From Myxococcales bacterium (GTDB taxonomy: Bacteria; Myxococcota_A; Polyangia; Polyangiales; DASUME01), in the NCBI GenBank assembly GCA_047601445.1, contig JASGJH010000001.1, positions 5,920,001-5,984,000 on the forward strand: a stretch of 64,000 nucleotides of DNA, written 5' to 3'. Within the stretch, counting starts at the first letter, position 1. Each line of letters opens with the position of its first letter. Made by a program: the position numbers and the translations under genes. This document shows, piece after piece, positions 1,146 to 58,710 of this stretch. The notes below the pieces were generated by a model, which was not told where the DNA came from, did not search any database, and was given only the letters and a program-made list of their open reading frames with translations.

Positions 1146-1227
1146 GCGAGCGTTAGCGAACCTCGCGGTGGGGCGGGTCCCGGCGCGGCTTTGCCGCGAC
1201 GGGCGGGGAGGTCGCGTGACCTCCCCC
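1146..1227 (+). repeat. Dispersed three-hairpin REP-like element, copy A
   Basis: GCGAGCGTTAGCGAACCTCGC-GGTGGGGCGGGTCCC-GGCGCGGCTTTGCCGCG-..-GGGGAGGTCGCGTGACCTCCCC; matches copies at 36596, 38540 and 56735. Confidence 0.9.
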
Positions 1228-1249
1228 GTGCAACAGCTGATCAAAGCGC

Positions 1250-6145: not shown

Positions 6146-7680
6146 GGGCGCGACTCGGGGACCCGTGAGGCACGGCTCATGGGCAACCTGATCTGAAAGC
6201 AGGCGCCACCTTCCGGGGCCTTCGCGCAGCTGATCTCGCCGCCGTGTTCGAGCACGATCTTCTTCACGATGGCCAACCCCAGGCCCGTGCCTTCGCTCTT
6301 GGTCGTGTAGTACGGATCAAACACGCGCTCCCACGCCTCCTCGGGCACACCCGGACCGTTGTCGCGGACCTCGAGGATAGCTTGGTCTTCGCGGTTGCGG
6401 GCCGCCACGACGATGCGGCCGTTTTGCTTGGCGGCACCACGCAGGGCTTGGGCTGCGTTGCGCACCAAGTTGTCGAGGCAGCGCTTGAGCAGCATGCCGT
6501 CGATCATCACCGGCAGCGCGCGGGGCTCGATCTCGGCCACCAGCTCCAGTGGGGTAGCGTCGTCATCATGGGCCTCGTCGCCGCGAAAGGGCGCGTCCAC
6601 CGCTTCGCGTGCGAACACGCCGAGATCCGCGGGCGATAGGTGCACCTCGGGCAAGCGCGCGAACTCGCTGAACTCACCCACCAGACGGCGTAGCGTGGCG
6701 ATCTCTTCTTCGACGATGGCGCGGGCATCCTCGAGCGTGCGTCGAAAGCGTGCGTCGTCGCCCTTGTAGGTGCGATGCACTTCTTGCACGGCGAGCTGGA
6801 TGGGGGTCAGCGGGTTCTTGATTTCGTGGGCGAGGCGGCGCGCGAACTCCTGCCAGGCACCGATGCGCGAGAGGTATTCGATGCGCGTGCGGGACTCCCG
6901 CATGTCTCGCACCATGTCGTTGAAAGCGCGCGTGAGGTCGGAGACTTCGTCGGCTTCTTCTACGGGCACGCTCACCGAGAGGTCGCCTGCACCGAGGCGC
7001 TCGGTGGCCTCGGCCAGCTGTGTGACGCGACGCGTGACGCGACGGGAGAGCGTGAGGCCGATGCCGAGCGCCACCACGATCACGCTCATCAAGAGCGCGA
7101 TGTAGACGGCGAGGTAGAAGCCCGAGACGTAGTCCGAGCCCTCCTTGAGTGCGCGGAACACCTCGCTCACCTCGCCGGCGCGCTGGTAGTCGCCGAAGGC
7201 GCGCGCGTCGGTACCCACGGTCACGCGTACGCCCACGTTGGGCACCCGGGCGAGTGGGACCTCGAGGTTGAGCAAGCGCAGGCTCGGTAAATCCACGCCC
7301 GGACGTTCCGCGGTGAAGAACGCTTGCTGGGCCTGCACCAGCTCCACGCGTTCCAGGTTTTCGTAGCGCGCGAGGATCGCGCCCAGGAGTGCGTGCAGCT
7401 CCGAGTCCGGAGGACGCTGCGCGTCGGCCAGGGCCAGGTTGAGCGACACGTCGTTCGCCACGGCCAGAGAGGTGCGCTCGGCGTCGGCACGTAGGGCGTT
7501 GAAATGGGTCTGGTACAGCGCGAGGCCGCGCTCGATCTCGCCACCCACCTGTTCGTTCACACCCACCGCGTAGGCCTCGCTGAGCACGCGCTGGCCCAAC
7601 ACCAGTGCGCCAATCAGTGGCATCAGGGCCACGGCGGCGATCGCGGCCGCGATCTTGCGTTCGAAACGACTCACCGCCAT
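6142..7680 (-). CDS. HAMP-domain sensor histidine kinase (NtrY-like)
   Basis: Two TMs, HAMP, H-box ARRLAHEIKNPLTPI, N-box NLVRNA, DNGPG and GTGLGL; ATG at 7680 overlaps the upstream gene. Confidence 0.93.
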   Translation of the reverse strand: MAVSRFERKIAAAIAAVALMPLIGALVLGQRVLSEAYAVGVNEQVGGEIERGLALYQTHFNALRADAERTSLAVANDVSLNLALADAQRPPDSELHALLGAILARYENLERVELVQAQQAFFTAERPGVDLPSLRLLNLEVPLARVPNVGVRVTVGTDARAFGDYQRAGEVSEVFRALKEGSDYVSGFYLAVYIALLMSVIVVALGIGLTLSRRVTRRVTQLAEATERLGAGDLSVSVPVEEADEVSDLTRAFNDMVRDMRESRTRIEYLSRIGAWQEFARRLAHEIKNPLTPIQLAVQEVHRTYKGDDARFRRTLEDARAIVEEEIATLRRLVGEFSEFARLPEVHLSPADLGVFAREAVDAPFRGDEAHDDDATPLELVAEIEPRALPVMIDGMLLKRCLDNLVRNAAQALRGAAKQNGRIVVAARNREDQAILEVRDNGPGVPEEAWERVFDPYYTTKSEGTGLGLAIVKKIVLEHGGEISCAKAPEGGACFQIRLPMSRASRVPESRP

Positions 7681-11405: not shown

Positions 11406-11439
11406 GCGCCTGCGTGCGGATCCCATGGCAGGCGAGATC

Positions 11440-11472
11440 GTGAGCGCGGCGAACCTCGCGGAGGGGTGGCCC
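11440..11472 (+). repeat. Partial (5') copy E of the dispersed element
   Basis: GTGAGCGCGGCGAACCTCGCGGAGGGGTGGCCC matches the first third of the element. Confidence 0.6.
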
Positions 11473-11520
11473 TCGCGGCGGTGCTTGAGTGAGGGCGCGG
11501 CTTCCGGTACCTAGGGTGGC

Positions 11521-36540: not shown

Positions 36541-36595
36541 GGTCGTTTCACTGGGAGGTCGCGTGCCTTCACTGGGGACGAGGCGAGCGCACTTC

Positions 36596-36672
36596 GTGAG
36601 CGAAGCGAACCTCGCGGTGGGGTGGGTCCCAGCGCGCCTTCGCCGCCGGCGGGGAGGGCGCGTGCCCTCCCC
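36596..36672 (+). repeat. Dispersed element, copy B (preceded by a remnant 3' hairpin at 36553-36570)
   Basis: GTGAGCGAAGCGAACCTCGC-GGTGGGGTGGGTCCC..GGGGAGGGCGCGTGCCCTCCCC. Confidence 0.9.
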
Positions 36673-36675
36673 GTT

Positions 36676-37878
36676 CTAACTCGACTCGCTCGCGTGCAGG
36701 ATGACGTGGGCCACTTGACGATAGAGCTTGAAGAACTCGTCGTCGCCGAAGCAGCTGCCGCTGTGCAGGAGGCCCGCCATCACCTGGTGTGGGCGGTCCA
36801 GGCCCTCGGCGTCGGTGACCCACACGGAGCGATCGTAGTAGCCCACCACGTCGAAGTGATCGGCCACCACCACCGCCGCGAGCTCCGCCGGATCCCGCGG
36901 GTTGATCAGCTGGCGGGCGGTGTTCACCACGCCGTCGTTGCTGGCCAAGTCGAGCGCCGCCGGCAGGCGCGCGTGGCGGCTGATGATCACACGCTCGGGG
37001 GAGGCTACAGCCTCCTCTAGCAAGCGCAGGGTCGGCCGCACGGCCTCGCCCTTGAGCATGCTGCCCGTGTGCTGACCCGAGGTGCGCATCCACATGTCGT
37101 CGAAAAAGGCGTCGGTGTCCGGGCCAGGGGCGGGATCGAGCGCATCGGGCAAACCCGCGATGGTGACGAAGCTGGCGCGACGCACCCGGGGCAGATCCGG
37201 CACGGCGCGTTGATAGAGCTCCTCCATGCGGTCGGGGCGCAGTGCTTCGATGAGGTCGTTCCAGCGCAGCACCTCGAAGAAGAACTTCCAGACCTTGTGG
37301 CCCTCGCGCGCGACGCTGATCAGGGTCTCGCTGGTGCTCACGTCGCTCGCCGCCGACACCATCAGCTTCAACAGAAGGTTGCCGAAAGGCACGGCCCCGC
37401 CGGGCGCGTGCTTGGGGCTGGCCAAGAACTGCGCCACCGGATCATCCGCCAGGCAGGTGCCTTGATGCGGGCTGCCGATGGAGATCACGCTGCGCAGGCG
37501 CTCGCGCAACGGGCGTGCATCGACGCCGTCATGGGAGGCCCAGCTGACTTGGCCCACGGGCTCCGAGAGCGTGAGCAGGTGAGCGTCCACGCCGCCCGTG
37601 CTGTGACCCACGAGGTGCACGTTGCCCACGCAATCGAAGACGGACATGCGATTGAGCAGGGTCTTCACCAGCGCGCTCTGGCGCTGCGCGAAGGACCCCG
37701 TGGGGAGGATGGGGACGGGTACGACGTACACCGTACGGCCGAGTCTATCTTCGAGGCAGGCGCGCAGGGCCGCAGTCACGCGGTCGGCGAAGTAGCCGAA
37801 GTTGCCGAACCGCTCGAACCCGAGAAAGCCGGGGATCAAGAACACGAGGTCGCAGGGCCTCGCACGTGAAACTGCCAT
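36676..37878 (-). CDS. Lipase-like alpha/beta hydrolase
   Basis: LIPGFLGF, GHSTG, SPHQGT, NDGVV and ADHFDVVG motifs. Confidence 0.88.
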   Translation of the reverse strand: MAVSRARPCDLVFLIPGFLGFERFGNFGYFADRVTAALRACLEDRLGRTVYVVPVPILPTGSFAQRQSALVKTLLNRMSVFDCVGNVHLVGHSTGGVDAHLLTLSEPVGQVSWASHDGVDARPLRERLRSVISIGSPHQGTCLADDPVAQFLASPKHAPGGAVPFGNLLLKLMVSAASDVSTSETLISVAREGHKVWKFFFEVLRWNDLIEALRPDRMEELYQRAVPDLPRVRRASFVTIAGLPDALDPAPGPDTDAFFDDMWMRTSGQHTGSMLKGEAVRPTLRLLEEAVASPERVIISRHARLPAALDLASNDGVVNTARQLINPRDPAELAAVVVADHFDVVGYYDRSVWVTDAEGLDRPHQVMAGLLHSGSCFGDDEFFKLYRQVAHVILHASESS

Positions 37879-38395: not shown

Positions 38396-38539
38396 GGATC
38401 CTTCCTCCTGAAGGTGGGCCCGGCTAGAGACCGGGCTCGCTCACTCCTTGAGTATCCGCACCAGAGCCATCCGTAGTATGGCCGTGCGTCCGAGGTCCAT
38501 ACCCGCAAATCCGAAATTGCCGCTCAATCCCCTGTTGTC

Positions 38540-38620
38540 GAGGAGGTCACGCGACCTCCGCGCCGGTCGCAGCAAAGCTGCGCCGGGTCCCACCCGCACC
38601 GCGAGCTTCGCTTCGCTCAC
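38540..38620 (-). repeat. Dispersed element, copy C
   Basis: Minus strand GTGAGCGAAGCGAAGCTCGC-GGTGCGGGTGGGACCC-GGCGCAGCTTTGCTGCG..GGAGGTCGCGTGACCTCC. Confidence 0.88.
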
Positions 38621-38624
38621 GAAC

Positions 38625-39608
38625 TTAGGACTGGGTGCTCTCCGACTCCATGTTGGTGCGGCGGTAGCTCGCGGGGGAGAGCCCGACCTCGCGCTTGAAA
38701 GCACGGCTCAACGCGAACTCGGTGCCGTAGCCCACTTGCTGCGCGATCTCCGCCAGGCTGCAGTTGCTCGTGCGCAGCAGTGCGGCCGCCAGCTGAATAC
38801 GCCACTGGGCGAGGTACTGGATGGGTGCCATTCCCATCAGCTGACCAAAGCGTTCGGCCAGCGTGGAGCGCGACACGCCGGCCTCCTTGGCGAGCTCTTC
38901 GAGGCTCCAGGCGTGGGCGGGTCGCTGGTGGATTTGCTGCAGCGCTCGGCCCACGTTCGGATCCTGTAGGCCTGCCAAAAATCCAACCTGACCAGGGGGC
39001 AAAGTGGCCACGTGGCGTCGTACCAATTCCACGAACAGCAGTTCACTCAGGCGCGACAGCACGCAATCGCTGCCGGGTCCGGGCGCGCTGGTCTCGGCCA
39101 CGGCGAGCTCTACCAGCTTGCGTAGCGCGCTGTCGTTCTCGTTGCTGCCGCGCAGGTGAATCATGCGCGGCAGCGTGGAGAGCAGCGGGTTGAAGGGCTT
39201 GGCGTCGCAGCCGAAGAACCCGCAGATCACGCTCACCTCGTCCTTGCCGCCACCGCGGATGGAGATGGGCACGGGGAGGCGCTGCTCGTGCAGGGAGCGA
39301 TAGGGTTCGATCACGGGCTCGCCGCGTGCGCCCGGTGCGCTCGAGAGTACGTGGCGATCGCCCTGGGGGAACGCAATCACGTCGCCCGCCTGAAGCTGCA
39401 CGTGGGGGCCCTCGACGAGTCCCGCCCAGCAAGAGCCCTTGGTCACGAGGTGATACTCGATGACATGCTCGGCGTTCGGCATGATGAAGCGCGCGATGCT
39501 GGAGGCGTCCGGGGCTTCGGCGACCCAGGGGGTTGACGCGTCGATGGAGAAGAACACTGCGCCGGTGAGCCTGACCGCGCGCAGCACCTCCGACAGAGGA
39601 TCCCTCAC
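38625..39608 (-). CDS. AraC family transcriptional regulator (cupin N-domain)
   Basis: DPLSEVL, YHLV..GSCW, WSLEELA..SRS and VGYGTEFALSRAFKR motifs. Confidence 0.94.
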   Translation of the reverse strand: MRDPLSEVLRAVRLTGAVFFSIDASTPWVAEAPDASSIARFIMPNAEHVIEYHLVTKGSCWAGLVEGPHVQLQAGDVIAFPQGDRHVLSSAPGARGEPVIEPYRSLHEQRLPVPISIRGGGKDEVSVICGFFGCDAKPFNPLLSTLPRMIHLRGSNENDSALRKLVELAVAETSAPGPGSDCVLSRLSELLFVELVRRHVATLPPGQVGFLAGLQDPNVGRALQQIHQRPAHAWSLEELAKEAGVSRSTLAERFGQLMGMAPIQYLAQWRIQLAAALLRTSNCSLAEIAQQVGYGTEFALSRAFKREVGLSPASYRRTNMESESTQS

Positions 39609-51493: not shown

Positions 51494-51796
51494 GGGTGGA
51501 CTCCGCGGGTCGATTTTCGGGAGCGAGTATGCGCGATCCGTCGAGTGAACCAGCACCTTCCGTGCTGACCGCCGCGACCAACTCAGCTGACCTGGAGGTG
51601 CGGTTTTGGCGCAGTTCTGCACAGCGGGTCCGTTGGTTCGAGGTCCCTAGCCGCAAACTCGGGGCGTGCACGAGAAAACACCCGCGCGGAAAAATCAAGG
51701 TGCATTCGTGCACGCACTGGCGATCGCGATGGACGCACGCGCATGAAGCTGCGAGCGCGCTTGACGATTGGCCCGGGCTCCCCCACTCCTTCGGGC

Positions 51797-52621
51797 ATGG
51801 CAAAGAAATCCGAGGCGGGGCCGGCGCTCCGTGGTGCAAAGCTGATCAAGAAGGCGATCGAGGCAGGTCGCGGCGAAGCGTTCTCTTCCCCCGAGCCTGT
51901 GGCGCCGGTGGTGCTCAAGCGTCTGGTGCTGCCGAATGGCGAGAGCATCTCCGCGAGCATGAAGGAACTGCTCAAGGTCGACTCGCTCTGGCTCGGCATC
52001 GAGTTCGATGAGGACGAAGGCGACATCGAGGCGGCGGCCTTCGATGACCTGATCGAGGACAACTTCGGCAAGCAGGCGGTGCATCTATTCGCCGAAGCCA
52101 GCGAGATGTTCGACGGGGATTGCATCGTGGTAGGCGGCGCCTCGGACGCCGTGCGCTTTCTCTATGTGGGCGAGGCCGACGAGTCGGGCGAATATGCGGT
52201 GATCACCGTGCGCAACGATCCCGAGCCGTGGGTGGGAGGCTTCGTGCCCTTCGACGTGTGGGTGGCCCAGGAAGTGGGCGCCGTGGATGCGCCCGCCGAA
52301 GCAGGCTCGGTGGCACCTCAGTACGAGGAGGCCGCCAAGGCGCTGGCGGACGCCAACGGCGACGGTCGGCTCGGCTTCAAGCCCACGGCGGGTGAAGCGT
52401 CCGACGAGGACGAAGAGGAAGAGGACGAAGACGACGAAGAGGACGAAGACGACGAAGAGGAGGAGGACGAGGAAGGCGACGACGACGAGCTCGACGAAGG
52501 CGAGCCGGATGACGGCGAGCTCGGTCCCGAGGGCGAAGACGACGAGGATGACGACGATGACGACGACGACGGCGACGAGGACGAGGACGACGAAGGCGAC
52601 GCCGACGACGAGGAAGACTGA
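51797..52621 (+). CDS. SUKH/DUF5066-like protein with a long Asp/Glu tail
   Basis: LPNGESISASMKELL, GGASDAVRFL..DESGEYAV and FDVWVAQ motifs; ~70-aa acidic C-terminus. Confidence 0.65.
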   Translation: MAKKSEAGPALRGAKLIKKAIEAGRGEAFSSPEPVAPVVLKRLVLPNGESISASMKELLKVDSLWLGIEFDEDEGDIEAAAFDDLIEDNFGKQAVHLFAEASEMFDGDCIVVGGASDAVRFLYVGEADESGEYAVITVRNDPEPWVGGFVPFDVWVAQEVGAVDAPAEAGSVAPQYEEAAKALADANGDGRLGFKPTAGEASDEDEEEEDEDDEEDEDDEEEEDEEGDDDELDEGEPDDGELGPEGEDDEDDDDDDDDGDEDEDDEGDADDEED

Positions 52622-54518: not shown

Positions 54519-55356
54519 TCAGGCGCGCCTGCGGACGAGAGCCCACGCCAGCGCAAGGAATGCCGTGGCGGTCCAAGCGAGTGGGCTTTCGCGTCTCCCG
54601 GGTACACCGACGGCGCAGCCCGATCCCGATTCGGCTCCCTGCGTGCTCGCGTCCGAGCCAGGGCTTCCCGTGGCTGCGTCGTGCGGTGTCGCACCAGCGT
54701 CGGCGTGCGTCTCGCCTGTCGCTGCGTCCTGCCGCGGGCCGCTAGCACCGGGCGTGCTCGCATCGTGCACCGGTCGACCGGCATCCACCGTCTCGCCCGC
54801 ATCTCGCTCCATGCCCGCATCGACCATCGAAGTCGGCGCCACGTAGGTCGAGCCAGCGCTCACGATGGCCACCTCCACGTGCAGCTTGGTGGGCACGTAC
54901 AGCGGGTCGCCCTGTGGCTTGTTGTTCTTGGTGTCCTTGAGGATCAGCGCGACCTTGTTGACGCCCTTGCTCCAATCGACGCTGCCTCCGTAATAGAACG
55001 AGCTGAACGGGGTGCTCCACTCGTAGGTGCCGGTGGTCGTGTAGGTGGGTGACTGATCGGTGCATGCGTAGCTGGGCGACGCTTCGAAGCAGAATCTGGA
55101 ACTTGGTCGGCGTCGGGCCAGGCTTGGTCAGCACCTGGAGCTTCACGTGCGCGGAACCCCCCGCGTAGTTCACGGGTGAGCTCCAGTTCTTTGGCGTGCC
55201 CGCCAGCGGCACCACGCGATAGTGGGAGTCCTCCGTGGTGTCGGCGGCGTGGGTGTAGGTGACGTCGGTCACCATGAACTGTTCGGCGCGCGCGGGCAGC
55301 GCCGCGCACGTCACGATGACAACGAGTCCCAGCGCCCGGAGAGAAGCCGCTTGCAT
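54519..55356 (-). CDS. MYXO-CTERM sorted surface protein; frameshift near 55093
   Basis: Signal peptide ..PARA; C-terminal GSGCAVG..hydrophobic..RRRA; removing one base restores KFQICFEASPSYAC. Confidence 0.8.
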
Positions 55357-55590: not shown

Positions 55591-55768
55591 GTTCGATCTC
55601 CTGACTCCTACACTCGAAAAGGTAAACCGCCTCACGCGCGGCGCTATCGCCCCGCACGCCGAGTAAGCGCCGCCCTCCACACGCTCGAAAGAAACAGTGA
55701 TGAGCCGCGCCGCGCTCGCTTCACGACGTTCGGCACGCGTTTGCACGGACGTTGCATGGGTTCGCTGC

Positions 55769-57045
55769 ATGGACCGAGGCATGGTCGCGTCGGAGCGTGC
55801 TCCTGAACTCGCCACCTTGGTGGAAGCTCCGCCGAGCGGGCCAGGCTGGTTTCACGAGATCAAGCTCGACGGCTATCGTCTGCTCGCCGAGTGCTCGGGG
55901 CGTGGCTCTCGCGGAACACGCGTCACGCTGTACACACGCGGCGGCAAGGACTGGACGGCCCGTGCGCGACGCGTGGCCGAGGCGCTGGCCGCGCTTCGCG
56001 CCAAGAGCGCCATCCTGGACGGTGAAGTCGTGGTGCTGCGCAAGGACGGCGTGAGCGACTTTCAGGCTCTGCAGAACGTGCTGCAGGAGGGCAAGCAGGA
56101 TGCCCTGACTTACTTCGTGTTCGACCTGCTGTTTCTGGATGGAAAGGACCTGCGCGCCCGACCCTTGCGTGAGCGCAAGGAGATGCTCGCGGCGCTCCTG
56201 CGCGAGAGCGCGCTGGGGCCCCAGGTCCGCTACAGCGAGCACTTCGAGCGCGAGGGCTCGGAGGTGTTGGCCAAGGCTTGCAAGATGGGGCTCGAGGGCA
56301 TCGTGTCCAAGCGCGCTGATTCGCCCTATCTCGGCAAGCGCAGCAGGGATTGGCAGAAGGCCAAGTGCAGCGCGCGGCAGGAGCTGGTCATCGGTGGCTT
56401 TACGGCGCCCGCGGGGGCACGCAAGCATTTCGGTGCGCTGCTGATGGGCGTGCGCGAGAAGGGCGCGCTGCGCTACGTGGGCAAAGTGGGGACCGGCTTC
56501 AGTGAGCGCAGCTTGCGTGAACTAAGCGCGCGCTTGGGGGGCCTCGAGAATCTTCCGAGCCACCCTTCCGCGACCCACCTCGGGGCGCCGAAGCGCGCGG
56601 CGTGCGCTGGGTGGAGCCCGAGTTGGTGGCAGAGATCGAGTTCACCGAGTTCACCCACGATCACCGCATGCGTCACCCGAGCTTTCGTGGCCTGCGCGAG
56701 GACAAGCAAGCCCGCGAGGTGGTGGAAGAGAAGCCACTCCGTGAGCGGAGCGAACGTCGCGGTGGGGTGGGTCCCGGCGTGGCTTGGCCGCGCCGGGCGG
56801 GGAGGTCGCGTGACCTCTCGCGAGAGAGCGCAAGGGCACTCCGTGAGCGGAGCGAACGTCGCGGTGGGGTGGGTCCCGGCGTGGCTTGGCCGCGCCGGGC
56901 GGGGAGGTCGCGTGACCTCTCGCGAGAGAGCGCAAGGGCACTCCGTGAGCGGAGCGAACGTCGCGGTGGGGTGGGTCCCGGCGTGGCTTGGCCGCGCCGG
57001 GCGGGGAGGTCGCGTGACCTCCCCGTTAGAAAAGGAGGCCGCTGA
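55769..57045 (+). CDS. ligD: NHEJ ATP-dependent DNA ligase (LigD ligase plus OB domain only); frameshift near 56549-56556; C-terminus carries the repeat array
   Basis: ELATLV, EIKLDGYR, LDGEVV, FDLL, EGIVSKR, GKVGTGF and, after the shift, WVEPELVAEIEF..RHPSFRGLREDK. Confidence 0.9.
56735..57024 (+). repeat. Tandem array (2 x 102 bp plus a third ~86-bp copy) of the dispersed element, copies D1-D3
   Basis: Units start at 56735, 56837 and 56939; the first two are identical. Confidence 0.95.
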
Positions 57046-57842
57046 TGGCGTTGCGCAGCATGTTCAAGGGCAGCCTGGTGGTCGGCAAGATCAAGCTCCC
57101 CGTGAAGCTCTATGCGGCCGTGGAAGAGCGGCGGATGCATTTTCGTTTCCTGTCGCCCAAGGATCACCAGCCCGTAACGCAGCAAATGGTGGATACGACG
57201 ACCGGCAAGGTGGTTTCCTCGAGGGACATTCGCAAAGGCTTCCACCTCGACGACGGCTCCTTCGTGCTCCTCGACCCGGGCGAGCTCAAGTCCCTTCAGC
57301 CCAAGGCCTCGCGCGATCTGCGCGTCACGGAGCGTCTGTCCCAGGACAGTGTGCCCGCGCAGTGGTTTCTGCGACCCTACTATCTGGGACCCGACGGCAG
57401 CACCGATGCCTACACGGCCCTGCACACCGCACTGCGCGAGAGCGGCGAATTGCTGCTGACTCACTGGGTCATGCGCGGCAACGAGTACGTCGGTGTGGTG
57501 CGGGCCGAGCCGGCGTGCCTATCGATCACCACGCTGCGTCACGCCGACGAAGTGGTCGACGCGAGCCAGCTGACGGGCCCGAGCGTCCAGGCCAGCGCGA
57601 AGGAGGTCAGCATGGCCAAGCAGCTGGTGGAGGCATTTACGGGTGAGTTCGATCCCGCGCTCTTCCAGGACGAATACACTAAGCGCCTCGAGGCCCTGGT
57701 GGCAGCCAAGCGCGCCGGCAAGAAGGTGCGACTGTCGCGGGCCAGCGCCAAGCCAGCCTCCGAGGGGTCCCTGGAGCGAGCACTGTCCCAAAGCTTGAAG
57801 CGGGCCAAGAAGCCCACCAGAAAGGAGCGCGCGGTTGCCTAA
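57045..57842 (+). CDS. ku: Ku protein (NHEJ), paralog 1
   Basis: FKGSL..LPVKLYAA, IRKGF, RPYYLGP and WVMRG motifs; AAAGGAGG RBS; start overlaps the ligD stop. Confidence 0.92.
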   Translation: MALRSMFKGSLVVGKIKLPVKLYAAVEERRMHFRFLSPKDHQPVTQQMVDTTTGKVVSSRDIRKGFHLDDGSFVLLDPGELKSLQPKASRDLRVTERLSQDSVPAQWFLRPYYLGPDGSTDAYTALHTALRESGELLLTHWVMRGNEYVGVVRAEPACLSITTLRHADEVVDASQLTGPSVQASAKEVSMAKQLVEAFTGEFDPALFQDEYTKRLEALVAAKRAGKKVRLSRASAKPASEGSLERALSQSLKRAKKPTRKERAVA

Positions 57843-58710
57843 ACGAAAGCCAAAGCAAAAGCCCACGACGAAGTCCGAGCGAGCACCCAACGTACGTCCT
57901 CTGTGGTCAGGCACCCTGAGCTTTGGGCTGGTCACGGTGCCGGTGGACCTGTTCCCCGCCCTGCGCAGCGCGCGCACACCGCTCCGCATGATTTCGTCGG
58001 AGGGACACGCGCTCGCACGCCAATACGTGAGCCAACAGGGCGACGTGGTGGAGAGTTCCGAGATCGAGCGCGGCGTGGCCGGGGCGCGCGGGCGCTTCAT
58101 CGTGCTGAAGGAGACCGAACTCGAGGGCCTGGCACCCGAGAAGTCCCAGGACATCAATGTGGTGCGCTTCGTGGATCAGACGGCCATCTCGCCGATGTTC
58201 TTCGAGCATCCCTATCTGCTCGCCCCGCGCGGAGCCCAGCGTGCCTATCGCTTGTTGGCGAGCACCATGGAGGAACTGGGCAAGGTGGCACTGGCGTCGT
58301 TCGTGATGCGCGGAACGGAGTACGTGCTCGCGGTGCGTGCCGAGCAGGGGGTGCTGCGGGCGGACGTGATCCGCTTTGCGGACGAGCTACGCGAGGCGAG
58401 CCTCGTGCCCGGGGTGGGTAAGGCCAAGCCGAGCGCGGCCAAGCTGCGCAGCATGGAGCGCGCGCTGCACGGCGTGAAACGCAAGGTGTTCGCGCCGAAC
58501 GAGGCGCGCGACGTGTACTGGGAGGGCGTGGAGAAGCTCGCCAAGTCCAAGGCCAAGAAGAAGGTGGACGTGGTGACTCCAGAGAGTCCTGAGCCCTCCA
58601 CGAGTGGACGCGAGCCGCTCGCCGATGTGATCGACCTGATGGCGGTGCTCGAACGCAGCCTCAAACAAGGCAAGCGACAGCCGGCGCGCAAGGCCAAGCG
58701 CTCTGGGTGA
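57835..58710 (+). CDS. ku: Ku protein (NHEJ), paralog 2
   Basis: WSGTLSFGLVTVPV, FEHPYLLAP, AYRLL, FVMRG and VIDLMAVLERSL motifs; TTG start after AAAGGAG. Confidence 0.93.
   Translation: MPKRKPKQKPTTKSERAPNVRPLWSGTLSFGLVTVPVDLFPALRSARTPLRMISSEGHALARQYVSQQGDVVESSEIERGVAGARGRFIVLKETELEGLAPEKSQDINVVRFVDQTAISPMFFEHPYLLAPRGAQRAYRLLASTMEELGKVALASFVMRGTEYVLAVRAEQGVLRADVIRFADELREASLVPGVGKAKPSAAKLRSMERALHGVKRKVFAPNEARDVYWEGVEKLAKSKAKKKVDVVTPESPEPSTSGREPLADVIDLMAVLERSLKQGKRQPARKAKRSG

Follow-up and report, generated by a model that had tools for sequence, protein, structure and literature searches.

At the 3' end of a ligD-type DNA ligase gene of a Myxococcales bacterium, three copies of a REP-like palindromic element stand in tandem, in register with the second half of the OB domain of the ligase and with a stop codon that overlaps the start of the following gene, ku1. 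The reading that we favour, with moderate confidence and on the condition that a frame break upstream of the array is an assembly error, is that the element replaced the tail of the ligase and that the resulting Arg-rich extension of approximately 96 residues is likely tolerated and probably functionless. The repeat family, the compensatory changes in its hairpins, an empty site in a relative and the register of the array are observed directly. If translated, the tail would represent a non-coding repeat that adds about 96 residues to an enzyme, with an empty-site control and with the coupling to the next gene surviving the insertion; the case illustrates an origin of new protein sequence and repeats published cases of REPs and Rickettsia palindromic elements (RPEs).

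The array at the end of ligD and its reading frame

The array lies in a window of 64,000 nucleotides, the whole stretch of DNA analysed here, within a 9.5-Mb genome (G000). As proposed in the initial annotation, TRF identifies in the window a tandem repeat with a period of 102 bp, 2.8 copies and 100% matches at 56735-57021; the terminal hairpin of the third copy closes at 57025, which places the array at 56735-57025. The relevant features are as follows.

55781..56547, + strand: ligD-type ligase-only gene, 5' part, with the adenylation domain and the first half of the OB domain
56540..56552, + strand: frame break in the assembled ligD, on GAATC at 56548-56552 (tblastn frame switch, codon-score switch)
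56551..56736, + strand: ligD 3' part, with the second half of the OB domain up to ...EVVEEKP (PF04679 positions 61-94, E 8e-13; alignment)
56735..56836, + strand: repeat copy 1 (TRF, hairpin analysis)
56745-56751, + strand: GCGNAGC mini-hairpin motif of copy 1
56767, + strand: GTGG of copy 1, before the 11-bp hairpin at 56773-56797
56798, + strand: start of the terminal hairpin of copy 1
56815-56826, + strand: linker palindrome of copy 1
56837..56938, + strand: repeat copy 2, identical to copy 1 (TRF)
56939..57025, + strand: repeat copy 3, without the linker, ending in the 10-bp terminal hairpin 57002-57025
56737..57024, + strand: 96 codons contributed by the array, in frame with the ligase C-terminus and without a coding-type codon signal
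57026..57047, + strand: A/T-rich element tail, AGGAGG ribosome-binding site (57033-57038), ancestral GGR codons and TGA/ATG overlap (57043-57047)
57045..57842, + strand: ku1 (PF02735, E 2e-29)
57835..58710, + strand: ku2 (PF02735, E 7e-30)

Read from 56737, the array frame gives LRERS...RDLPVRKGGR* and is free of stops up to the TGA at 57043-57045. Several details already pointed out in the initial annotation hold: this TGA shares one base with the ku1 ATG, a 12-bp palindrome occupies the junctions at 56815 and 56917, and the AGGAGG begins at 57033, 7 nt past the last hairpin. The array folds better than all of 100 shuffled sequences (z -4.7), and in the fold predicted for its RNA the terminal hairpin is self-contained and makes no pairs with the ribosome-binding site. 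Arg accounts for 30 of the 102 residues between 56737 and the stop, a richness that probably stems from the GC-rich DNA. The codon score of the array frame, -0.29 per codon, is a non-coding profile (genes score about +0.2); two of the three forward frames of the 102-bp unit are open, and single copies of the repeat are open in 54, 48 and 2 of 71 cases in the three frames. Since two of three unit frames are open and the peptide carries no coding signal, the fact that the array stays in frame is unremarkable. The whole 102-bp units are identical and lack unique spacers, which sets the array apart from CRISPR. By eye, four runs of at least three G occur on one strand in the repeat core (window 56762-56804); they might fold into a quadruplex in competition with the central hairpin.

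The protein carries the ATP-dependent ligase and OB domains expected of LigD, spread over two frames. The 5' part, in an ORF starting at 55697, matches PF01068 (E 1e-27) and positions 2-49 of the PF04679 profile, and is 66–68% identical to its closest homologues P0001-P0003, with aligned starts; positions 61-94 of PF04679 and the repeat peptide lie in a separate ORF, 56602-57045. Neither polymerase nor phosphoesterase Pfam domains were detected among the five proteins scanned, and the gene is ligase-only, as are P0001-P0003 (340–362 aa). With three intact homologues as queries, tblastn places a frame switch near 56540-56552. In the assembly as it stands, the ligase frame crosses the array in another open frame and then runs through ku1 out of frame to 57646, and the original proposal that the array is in frame with LigD holds for the half of the OB domain towards the C-terminus and for the stop, not for the ligase frame as assembled. 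Codon use on the two sides of the break (0.22 and 0.17 per codon) is close to that of ku1 (0.23). The genome encodes a second LigD, unbroken and multi-domain, with 877 codons, beside Ku at 8.827-8.831 Mb.

The break has to be judged against the quality of the assembly. When proteins of a relative (G007) were aligned to G000, 13 frame switches appeared in 12 of 210 genes, as against 1 in 196 in the reverse control. About half of the 446 shift calls genome-wide are near GATC, GAATC or GATTC, and GAATC/GATTC lies within 12 nt of 151 of the 446, compared with 2.1% of random coding sites. DNA alignments reveal single extra bases in or beside GATC, with insertions also next to intact GATC sites, and 172 of 178 motif-associated calls are of one extra base. 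The pattern probably reflects faulty base calling where GATC is methylated, in an assembly of long reads. In the window, extra bases of this kind at GATC-like sites occur also at 55093, 18799 and 3311, the gene at 54519-55275 being one case. With several hundred likely indels of this kind in the assembly, broken genes and odd frames found in it need to be checked for them.

The only GAATC/GATTC in 56401-56740 is the one at 56548, at the ligD break. To account for the ligD break, an error would have to consist of one base fewer or two more, unlike the usual +1 type, and homologue length favours two extra bases. Shifts of the ligD type at GAATC/GATTC number 6 at 6,160 sites where 4.6 are expected, which is no excess. 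In a genome-wide DNA alignment to G007, in which intergenic noise is dominant, the GATC-like events comprise 17 single and one double extra-base event, the latter outside called genes; a seemingly second -1/+2 error at the same 7-mer, at window 8351, was rejected as an artefact of overlapping genes. Because the break falls on GAATC in an assembly with systematic GATC-site indels, we consider it probable that it is an assembly error of this kind, a judgement that weighs a 2% motif coincidence against the rarity of double errors. A second indel at the array junction is unlikely, since no motif is found there and the register with the ancestral stop would be left to chance. The initial annotation overlooked the break, although it had named a real upstream frameshift as grounds for abandoning its proposal; a break is indeed present in the assembly and is likely an error. 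By the same token, the Arg-rich tail of about 97 residues that it postulated corresponds to 96 codons in register, and translation of these hinges on the break being an error.

The ancestral state of the junction can be read from a metagenome contig, L096, one of four loci fetched, the Ku of which is 63% identical. Its ligase ends ...EVVQETAKRSRKRRTLPATNATGGR, with a TGA overlapping the ku ATG, and thus the GGR and the overlap in the window are ancestral and belong to the ligase frame. The search for an empty site that the initial annotation had suggested therefore succeeds in L096, and its reconstruction of the ancestral end as EEKPVRKGGR* is borne out as to GGR*; PVRK, in contrast, is coded by the last bases of the element and its A/T-rich tail, and the L096 orthologue has 17 residues between EVVQE and GGR*. 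By this comparison the array appears to have replaced a variable basic tail instead of being inserted cleanly, unless the ancestral tail was shorter. The orthologues (P0001-P0003 and those of genomes G002, G005 and G008) are unbroken and have basic tails of about 2 to 35 residues past an EERP-like motif; as the closest proteins carry Arg-rich tails of 13–35 residues, such a tail is normal in these ligases. G002 has the order ligD-ku-ku with a short tail and a spacer, its LigD ending two residues past the matching ERP, and in G005 and G008 ligD is elsewhere or inverted. The element is absent from all 12 ligD/ku loci of relatives. In four relatives (L002, L003, L004, L008) a small Cys-rich (CxxC) gene, not ligD, directly precedes ku1. 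Elsewhere in the window, an ORF at 51743-52621 has a very long Asp/Glu C-terminal tract.

A polar, REP-like repeat family

A profile made from 126 near-full-length copies gave 221 matches at 158 loci in G000 and none in the reversed genome. The structured repeat proposed in the initial annotation is thus confirmed as a dispersed, lineage-specific element with covarying hairpins, a dispersed high-copy palindromic repeat and in this broad sense a REP. Its core of about 90 bp consists of three hairpins, namely the GCG[N]AGC motif, an 11-bp central hairpin and a 10-bp terminal hairpin, and is directly followed by about 8 A/T-rich bases. Compensatory changes are evident in both longer stems: one pair of the terminal hairpin is T-A in 87, G-C in 41 and mismatched in 2 copies (n=130), and one pair of the central hairpin is G-C in 74, A-T in 9, G-T in 2 and mismatched in 7 (n=92). 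The loop base of GCG[N]AGC varies (A 53, C 44, G 12, T 10) between neighbours that are more than 90% conserved. Two bases 5' of the central stem stands GTGG in 92 of the 112 copies listed, and GTAG in 2. GCGNAGC is an extra-stable DNA mini-hairpin, a related 8-base form of which is described as much weaker as RNA in the part of PMC13037366 available to us; judging from this behaviour, the repeat would be recognised as single-stranded DNA. Three Rfam matches all fall far below the gathering score. Integron attC sites and intrinsic terminators were considered and rejected by eye, the former for want of matching core sites and the latter as no U-run follows the hairpin on either strand.

Of 41 genomes searched at the DNA level, 14, G000 included, gave matches at E<=0.01. 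Within the genus, 5 of 9 genomes have the repeat at E<1e-13, and outside it the matches are weak only. An exact 27-letter pattern occurs in 18 GTDB contig stretches titled Polyangiales, Myxococcales or uncultured delta proteobacterium; one exact repeat pattern had no match in viral contigs, and a search of plasmids gave two weak partial matches (E 0.002–0.006). Further copies in the window (1146-1229, 11434-11480, 36586-36679 and 38534-38627) are all intergenic. Along the genome the loci are unevenly spread, with 10–18 per 500 kb over most of 5.0–9.0 Mb, 2–6 over 0–2 Mb and none at 4.0–4.5 Mb, and replication-strand bias is not evident in binned counts. An 87-bp repeat of Myxococcus xanthus was reportedly published in 1991, and a paper of 2015 is said to place REPs close to stop codons. 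The family seems undescribed in the literature searched, the M. xanthus repeat and the consensus in Figure 1 of PMC3733652 being left out of the comparison.

Placement relative to genes, called with a custom frameshift-aware caller, follows the pattern of REPs, which are mostly extragenic, near gene 3' ends and enriched between convergent genes. Gaps between convergent genes hold 47 of the 158 loci, compared with 869 of 5,433 gaps genome-wide (p 2e-5). The two ends of the element behave differently: the hairpin end lies a median of 5.5 nt from the stop of the convergent gene (within 10 nt in 43 of 76), and the opposite end a median of 33.5 nt from the upstream stop (within 10 nt in 10 of 66), a polarity with p 1e-8 for copies that are non-independent. 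The abutting stops are TAA in 13 of 41 cases versus 586 of 6,855 genome-wide, an excess which suggests that the A/T-rich tail of the element supplies stop codons; among same-strand upstream genes, 4 of 66 end on the element's own TGA.

Reading into the element is rare. There are 158 gene sides within 70 nt of an element, of which 5 scored too low and 153 were kept; the flanking genes stop at or before the element edge in 151 and read in in 2. The ligD site, where the scoring window spans the break, did not register as read-in in this test. One of the two is a membrane-protein gene labelled by eye as NhaA-like, which gains PRRAGRSRDLP; the other carries a shift call. The NhaA-like gene (G000:C1:7265262-7266599) continues across a half copy, using the frame seen at ligD, and has its stop at the TGA of the copy that follows. 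In relatives none of 38 matches, some of them duplicates, overlaps a called gene. At G000:C1:7710784-7710873 a copy occupies a TGATG-coupled junction between genes that look, by eye, like mrdA and rodA, flanked by a 14-bp direct repeat that preserves the upstream stop as well as the downstream ribosome-binding site. Another copy (G000:C1:7682511-7682604) lies a short way upstream of one more homologue of ATP-dependent ligases, at 7682733. A protein search with the repeat peptide gave one match; in P0057, a prepilin-type protein from a Polyangiales MAG, the repeat peptide stands at the annotated N-terminus, which may be a start-codon error.

Absence of the element from comparable sites is the rule in G007: in a comparison covering 1.08 Mb, about a sixth of that genome, all 23 such sites lack it, one of them keeping, by eye, a hairpin remnant. 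On G007 contig C37, the intergenic gap that corresponds to G000 8879742 holds another hairpin repeat, 32 bp long and present as three tandem copies. The 36 multi-copy loci among the 158 are all head-to-tail on one strand. Copies are 99.2% identical within arrays (39 pairs) versus 85.9% between loci (600 sampled pairs), which indicates that arrays arise locally. Their periods are locus-specific, with whole units of 96–110 nt and half units of 40–43 nt, and the period is a multiple of three in 6 of the 23 arrays of full-size units, about as expected by chance. Direct repeats of 11–14 bp flank 3 of 81 loci, which is no excess over shuffled pairs (p 0.57); polar and without regular target duplication, the element does not conform to a MITE. 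The 5' end is complete at 133 and the 3' end at 141 of the 158 loci. Rolling-circle or retro-type insertion, for which the head-to-tail arrays and the A/T-rich 3' tail might speak, was rejected given the lack of general target duplication and the 5' ends being complete about as often as the 3' ends.

The search for a mobiliser covered several enzyme classes. G000 has one Y1 gene, IS200-like, 196 kb from the nearest element; it scores below the NF047646 cut-off for RAYTs, and a RAYT flanked by the repeat was not found. The region of this sole Y1 transposase (G000:C1:58424-61780) stands out from the rest of the genome by its low GC content and is either an island or a mis-joined piece. Y1 loci from 4 of 10 genomes hold no element, the assemblies of the relatives being incomplete. 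IS110 and TnpB searches of G000 gave no match; two reverse transcriptases and three IS4-type genes are 30–183 kb from the nearest element, none adjoining one. An IS91-type Y2 search of G000 gave no match, nor did its positive controls, and a scan of called genes for HUH-like motifs was likewise negative and also missed the known IS200 gene. Sixteen GIY-YIG matches in 10 genomes of the genus all lie in frames of 289–1243 codons, none near an element. Element pairs no more than 3.2 kb apart enclose what by eye are unrelated housekeeping genes. Genomes bearing REPs may lack a RAYT, according to the part of PMC3733652 available to us. Polar placement at stops without a RAYT bears on how REP-like repeats spread when they lack a cognate transposase.

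Origin of the tail and competing explanations

We propose that the element would spread as a non-autonomous, folded single-stranded DNA without a gene of its own, and would usually survive only outside genes. Tentatively, and with somewhat less than even confidence, it may act as folded single-stranded DNA that was copied in trans by an enzyme of the HUH/Y1 type now missing from the genome. At ligD it would have landed in a dispensable tail, in the phase in which translation would still finish at the stop that overlaps the ku1 start. Arrays would grow locally via slippage or recombination, and a 102-bp unit would be frame-neutral at any copy number. The read-through allele could survive given that the orthologues already have disordered basic tails and that the register keeps termination on the ku1 start codon, and the array-derived tail is probably disordered and neutral. 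Termination followed by re-initiation is established for stop/start overlaps; in the present case ribosomes would unwind the hairpins, stop at the ku1 start and re-initiate. A broader version, that the family is a RAYT-independent Polyangiales mobile element, folded as single-stranded DNA and moved by a yet-undescribed enzyme, which docks its terminal hairpin at stops, rewrites gene ends by providing new stops and now and then new C-terminal peptides, and at ligD-ku1 would have made a frame-neutral tail of variable copy number that keeps the Ku coupling, is speculative and in our estimation rather doubtful.

Were the frameshift real, this ligD copy would be a recent pseudogene, the array would have landed in dead sequence, the tail would never be translated with the ligase, and the register would be a one-in-three coincidence. 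The break not being of the usual +1 error type speaks for such a reading, as do the full-length LigD-Ku locus elsewhere, which would make the loss cheap, and the rarity of read-in to living genes, which a dead gene would explain. However, the motif on which the break sits lies close to no more than about 2% of coding sites taken at random, an assembly where insertions occur also beside intact GATC could acquire two extra bases at the same site, and the gene has no other lesion, a normal codon score and a preserved register with the ancestral stop; on balance, we regard the pseudogene as unlikely, with an appreciable residual chance. A related way of leaving the array untranslated, that a second indel at the junction hides a LigD stop at the element's TGA 56742-56744 and renders the array intergenic, has precedents in the 4 of 66 same-strand upstream genes that use the element TGA and in the LigD of G002, the length of which it would reproduce. 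It demands a missing base within about 30 nt devoid of GATC-like motifs, where the errors of this assembly are mostly extra bases, and makes the exact register with the ancestral GGR* stop a coincidence, and is very improbable.

Returning to the tolerated tail, it has to be asked whether selection keeps the insertion, either by hairpins that set ku1 translation or transcript processing or by an Arg tail that adds nucleic-acid binding. The last hairpin ending 7 nt before the AGGAGG and the kept register of the coupled stop fit this idea, and in the part of PMC3733652 available to us intragenic REPs are frequent in DNA repair genes. It is nevertheless improbable: none of the 12 ligD/ku loci of relatives has the element, the terminal hairpin of the predicted RNA fold does not pair with the ribosome-binding site, and the codon profile of the peptide is non-coding in a frame that is open in most intergenic copies as well. 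With open frames this common and orthologues having Arg-rich tails of varied length, the role for the peptide, or for the array in tuning ku, that the initial annotation envisaged is unsupported. Least credible of all is that a single copy was multiplied into three during assembly, to which the 100% identity of the copies and the systematic errors of the assembly might point; multiple copies are found at 36 of the 158 loci, with periods that differ from locus to locus, tandem pairs occur in the fragmented assemblies of relatives (G007:C167, G002:C222), and a single copy would in any event keep the same frame.

Comparison with known systems

Bacterial NHEJ operons combine a LigD ligase module with Ku. 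The locus resembles such ligase-Ku operons in that a ligase domain and an OB domain are encoded beside two ku genes, with the same order in G002 and L096; it differs from multi-domain LigD, one of which is encoded elsewhere in the genome, in that the gene in the window is ligase-only.

Among repeats, the closest parallels are the GTAG-class REPs as described in the part of the work of Di Nocera, De Gregorio and Rocco (2013; PMC3733652) available to us. These REPs lie near gene ends and supply stop codons; rare in-frame copies are frequent in DNA repair genes, including the DNA ligase Oter_3148, and intragenic clusters code for 43–82 residues, with slightly more than 10% at ORF ends. Going by the same portions of that paper, the present family shares with the class more than 100 copies, a mostly intergenic location near 3' ends, enrichment between convergent genes, compensatory stem changes, termini that supply stop codons and rare in-frame copies; like GTAG-1/-2 and the GTGG variant of O. 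terrae, it has GTGG, then two unpaired bases, then a stem. It departs from what is described there in having about 90 bp and three hairpins instead of 20–40 bp and one, in the internal instead of terminal position of GTGG, and in that no RAYT was found; thus GTAG/GTGG does adjoin a stem but is not a terminal tag on a unit of 20–40 bp. Sorangium, Myxococcus, Haliangium and Anaeromyxobacter are absent from the four supplementary files of PMC3733652 that were searched. As the element fails the tests of terminal tag, size, alternating orientation and RAYT, we file it as REP-like and not as a member of the GTAG family.

The GC-rich hairpins recall the REPs and BIMEs of Nunvar et al. 2010, where the GCG[N]AGC loop appears in enterobacterial REPs (Table 1 of PMC2817692, a source available to us in part). 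Unlike BIMEs, in which orientation alternates, none of the 36 multi-copy loci here does so, and no RAYT scores above the cut-off. The NTS/SRM repeats of Ssn systems, as far as the available part of PMC11893778 describes them, are likewise hairpin repeats that have an orientation and a conserved extension on one side and could be recognised as single-stranded DNA, but the small single-domain GIY-YIG gene of those systems has no counterpart in the genomes of the genus searched, and none flanked by the repeat was found. The RPEs of Rickettsia (RPE-1, RPE-4 and RPE-6, as summarised in the available part of PMC3733652) are likewise palindromic repeats read in frame in protein genes, and the initial annotation was right to draw the parallel as far as an in-frame repeat is concerned. 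It was overstated in other respects: RPEs, going by that summary, reside in many ORFs and often inside the protein, whereas the family here is almost wholly intergenic, with read-in at 2 of 153 scored flanking genes in addition to the ligD site, where the copies lie in a dispensable tail. Intragenic REPs being already known, the ligD array adds one more case to a familiar kind; what is less ordinary is the polarity of the family, with the terminal hairpin a median of 5.5 nt from the stops of convergent genes.
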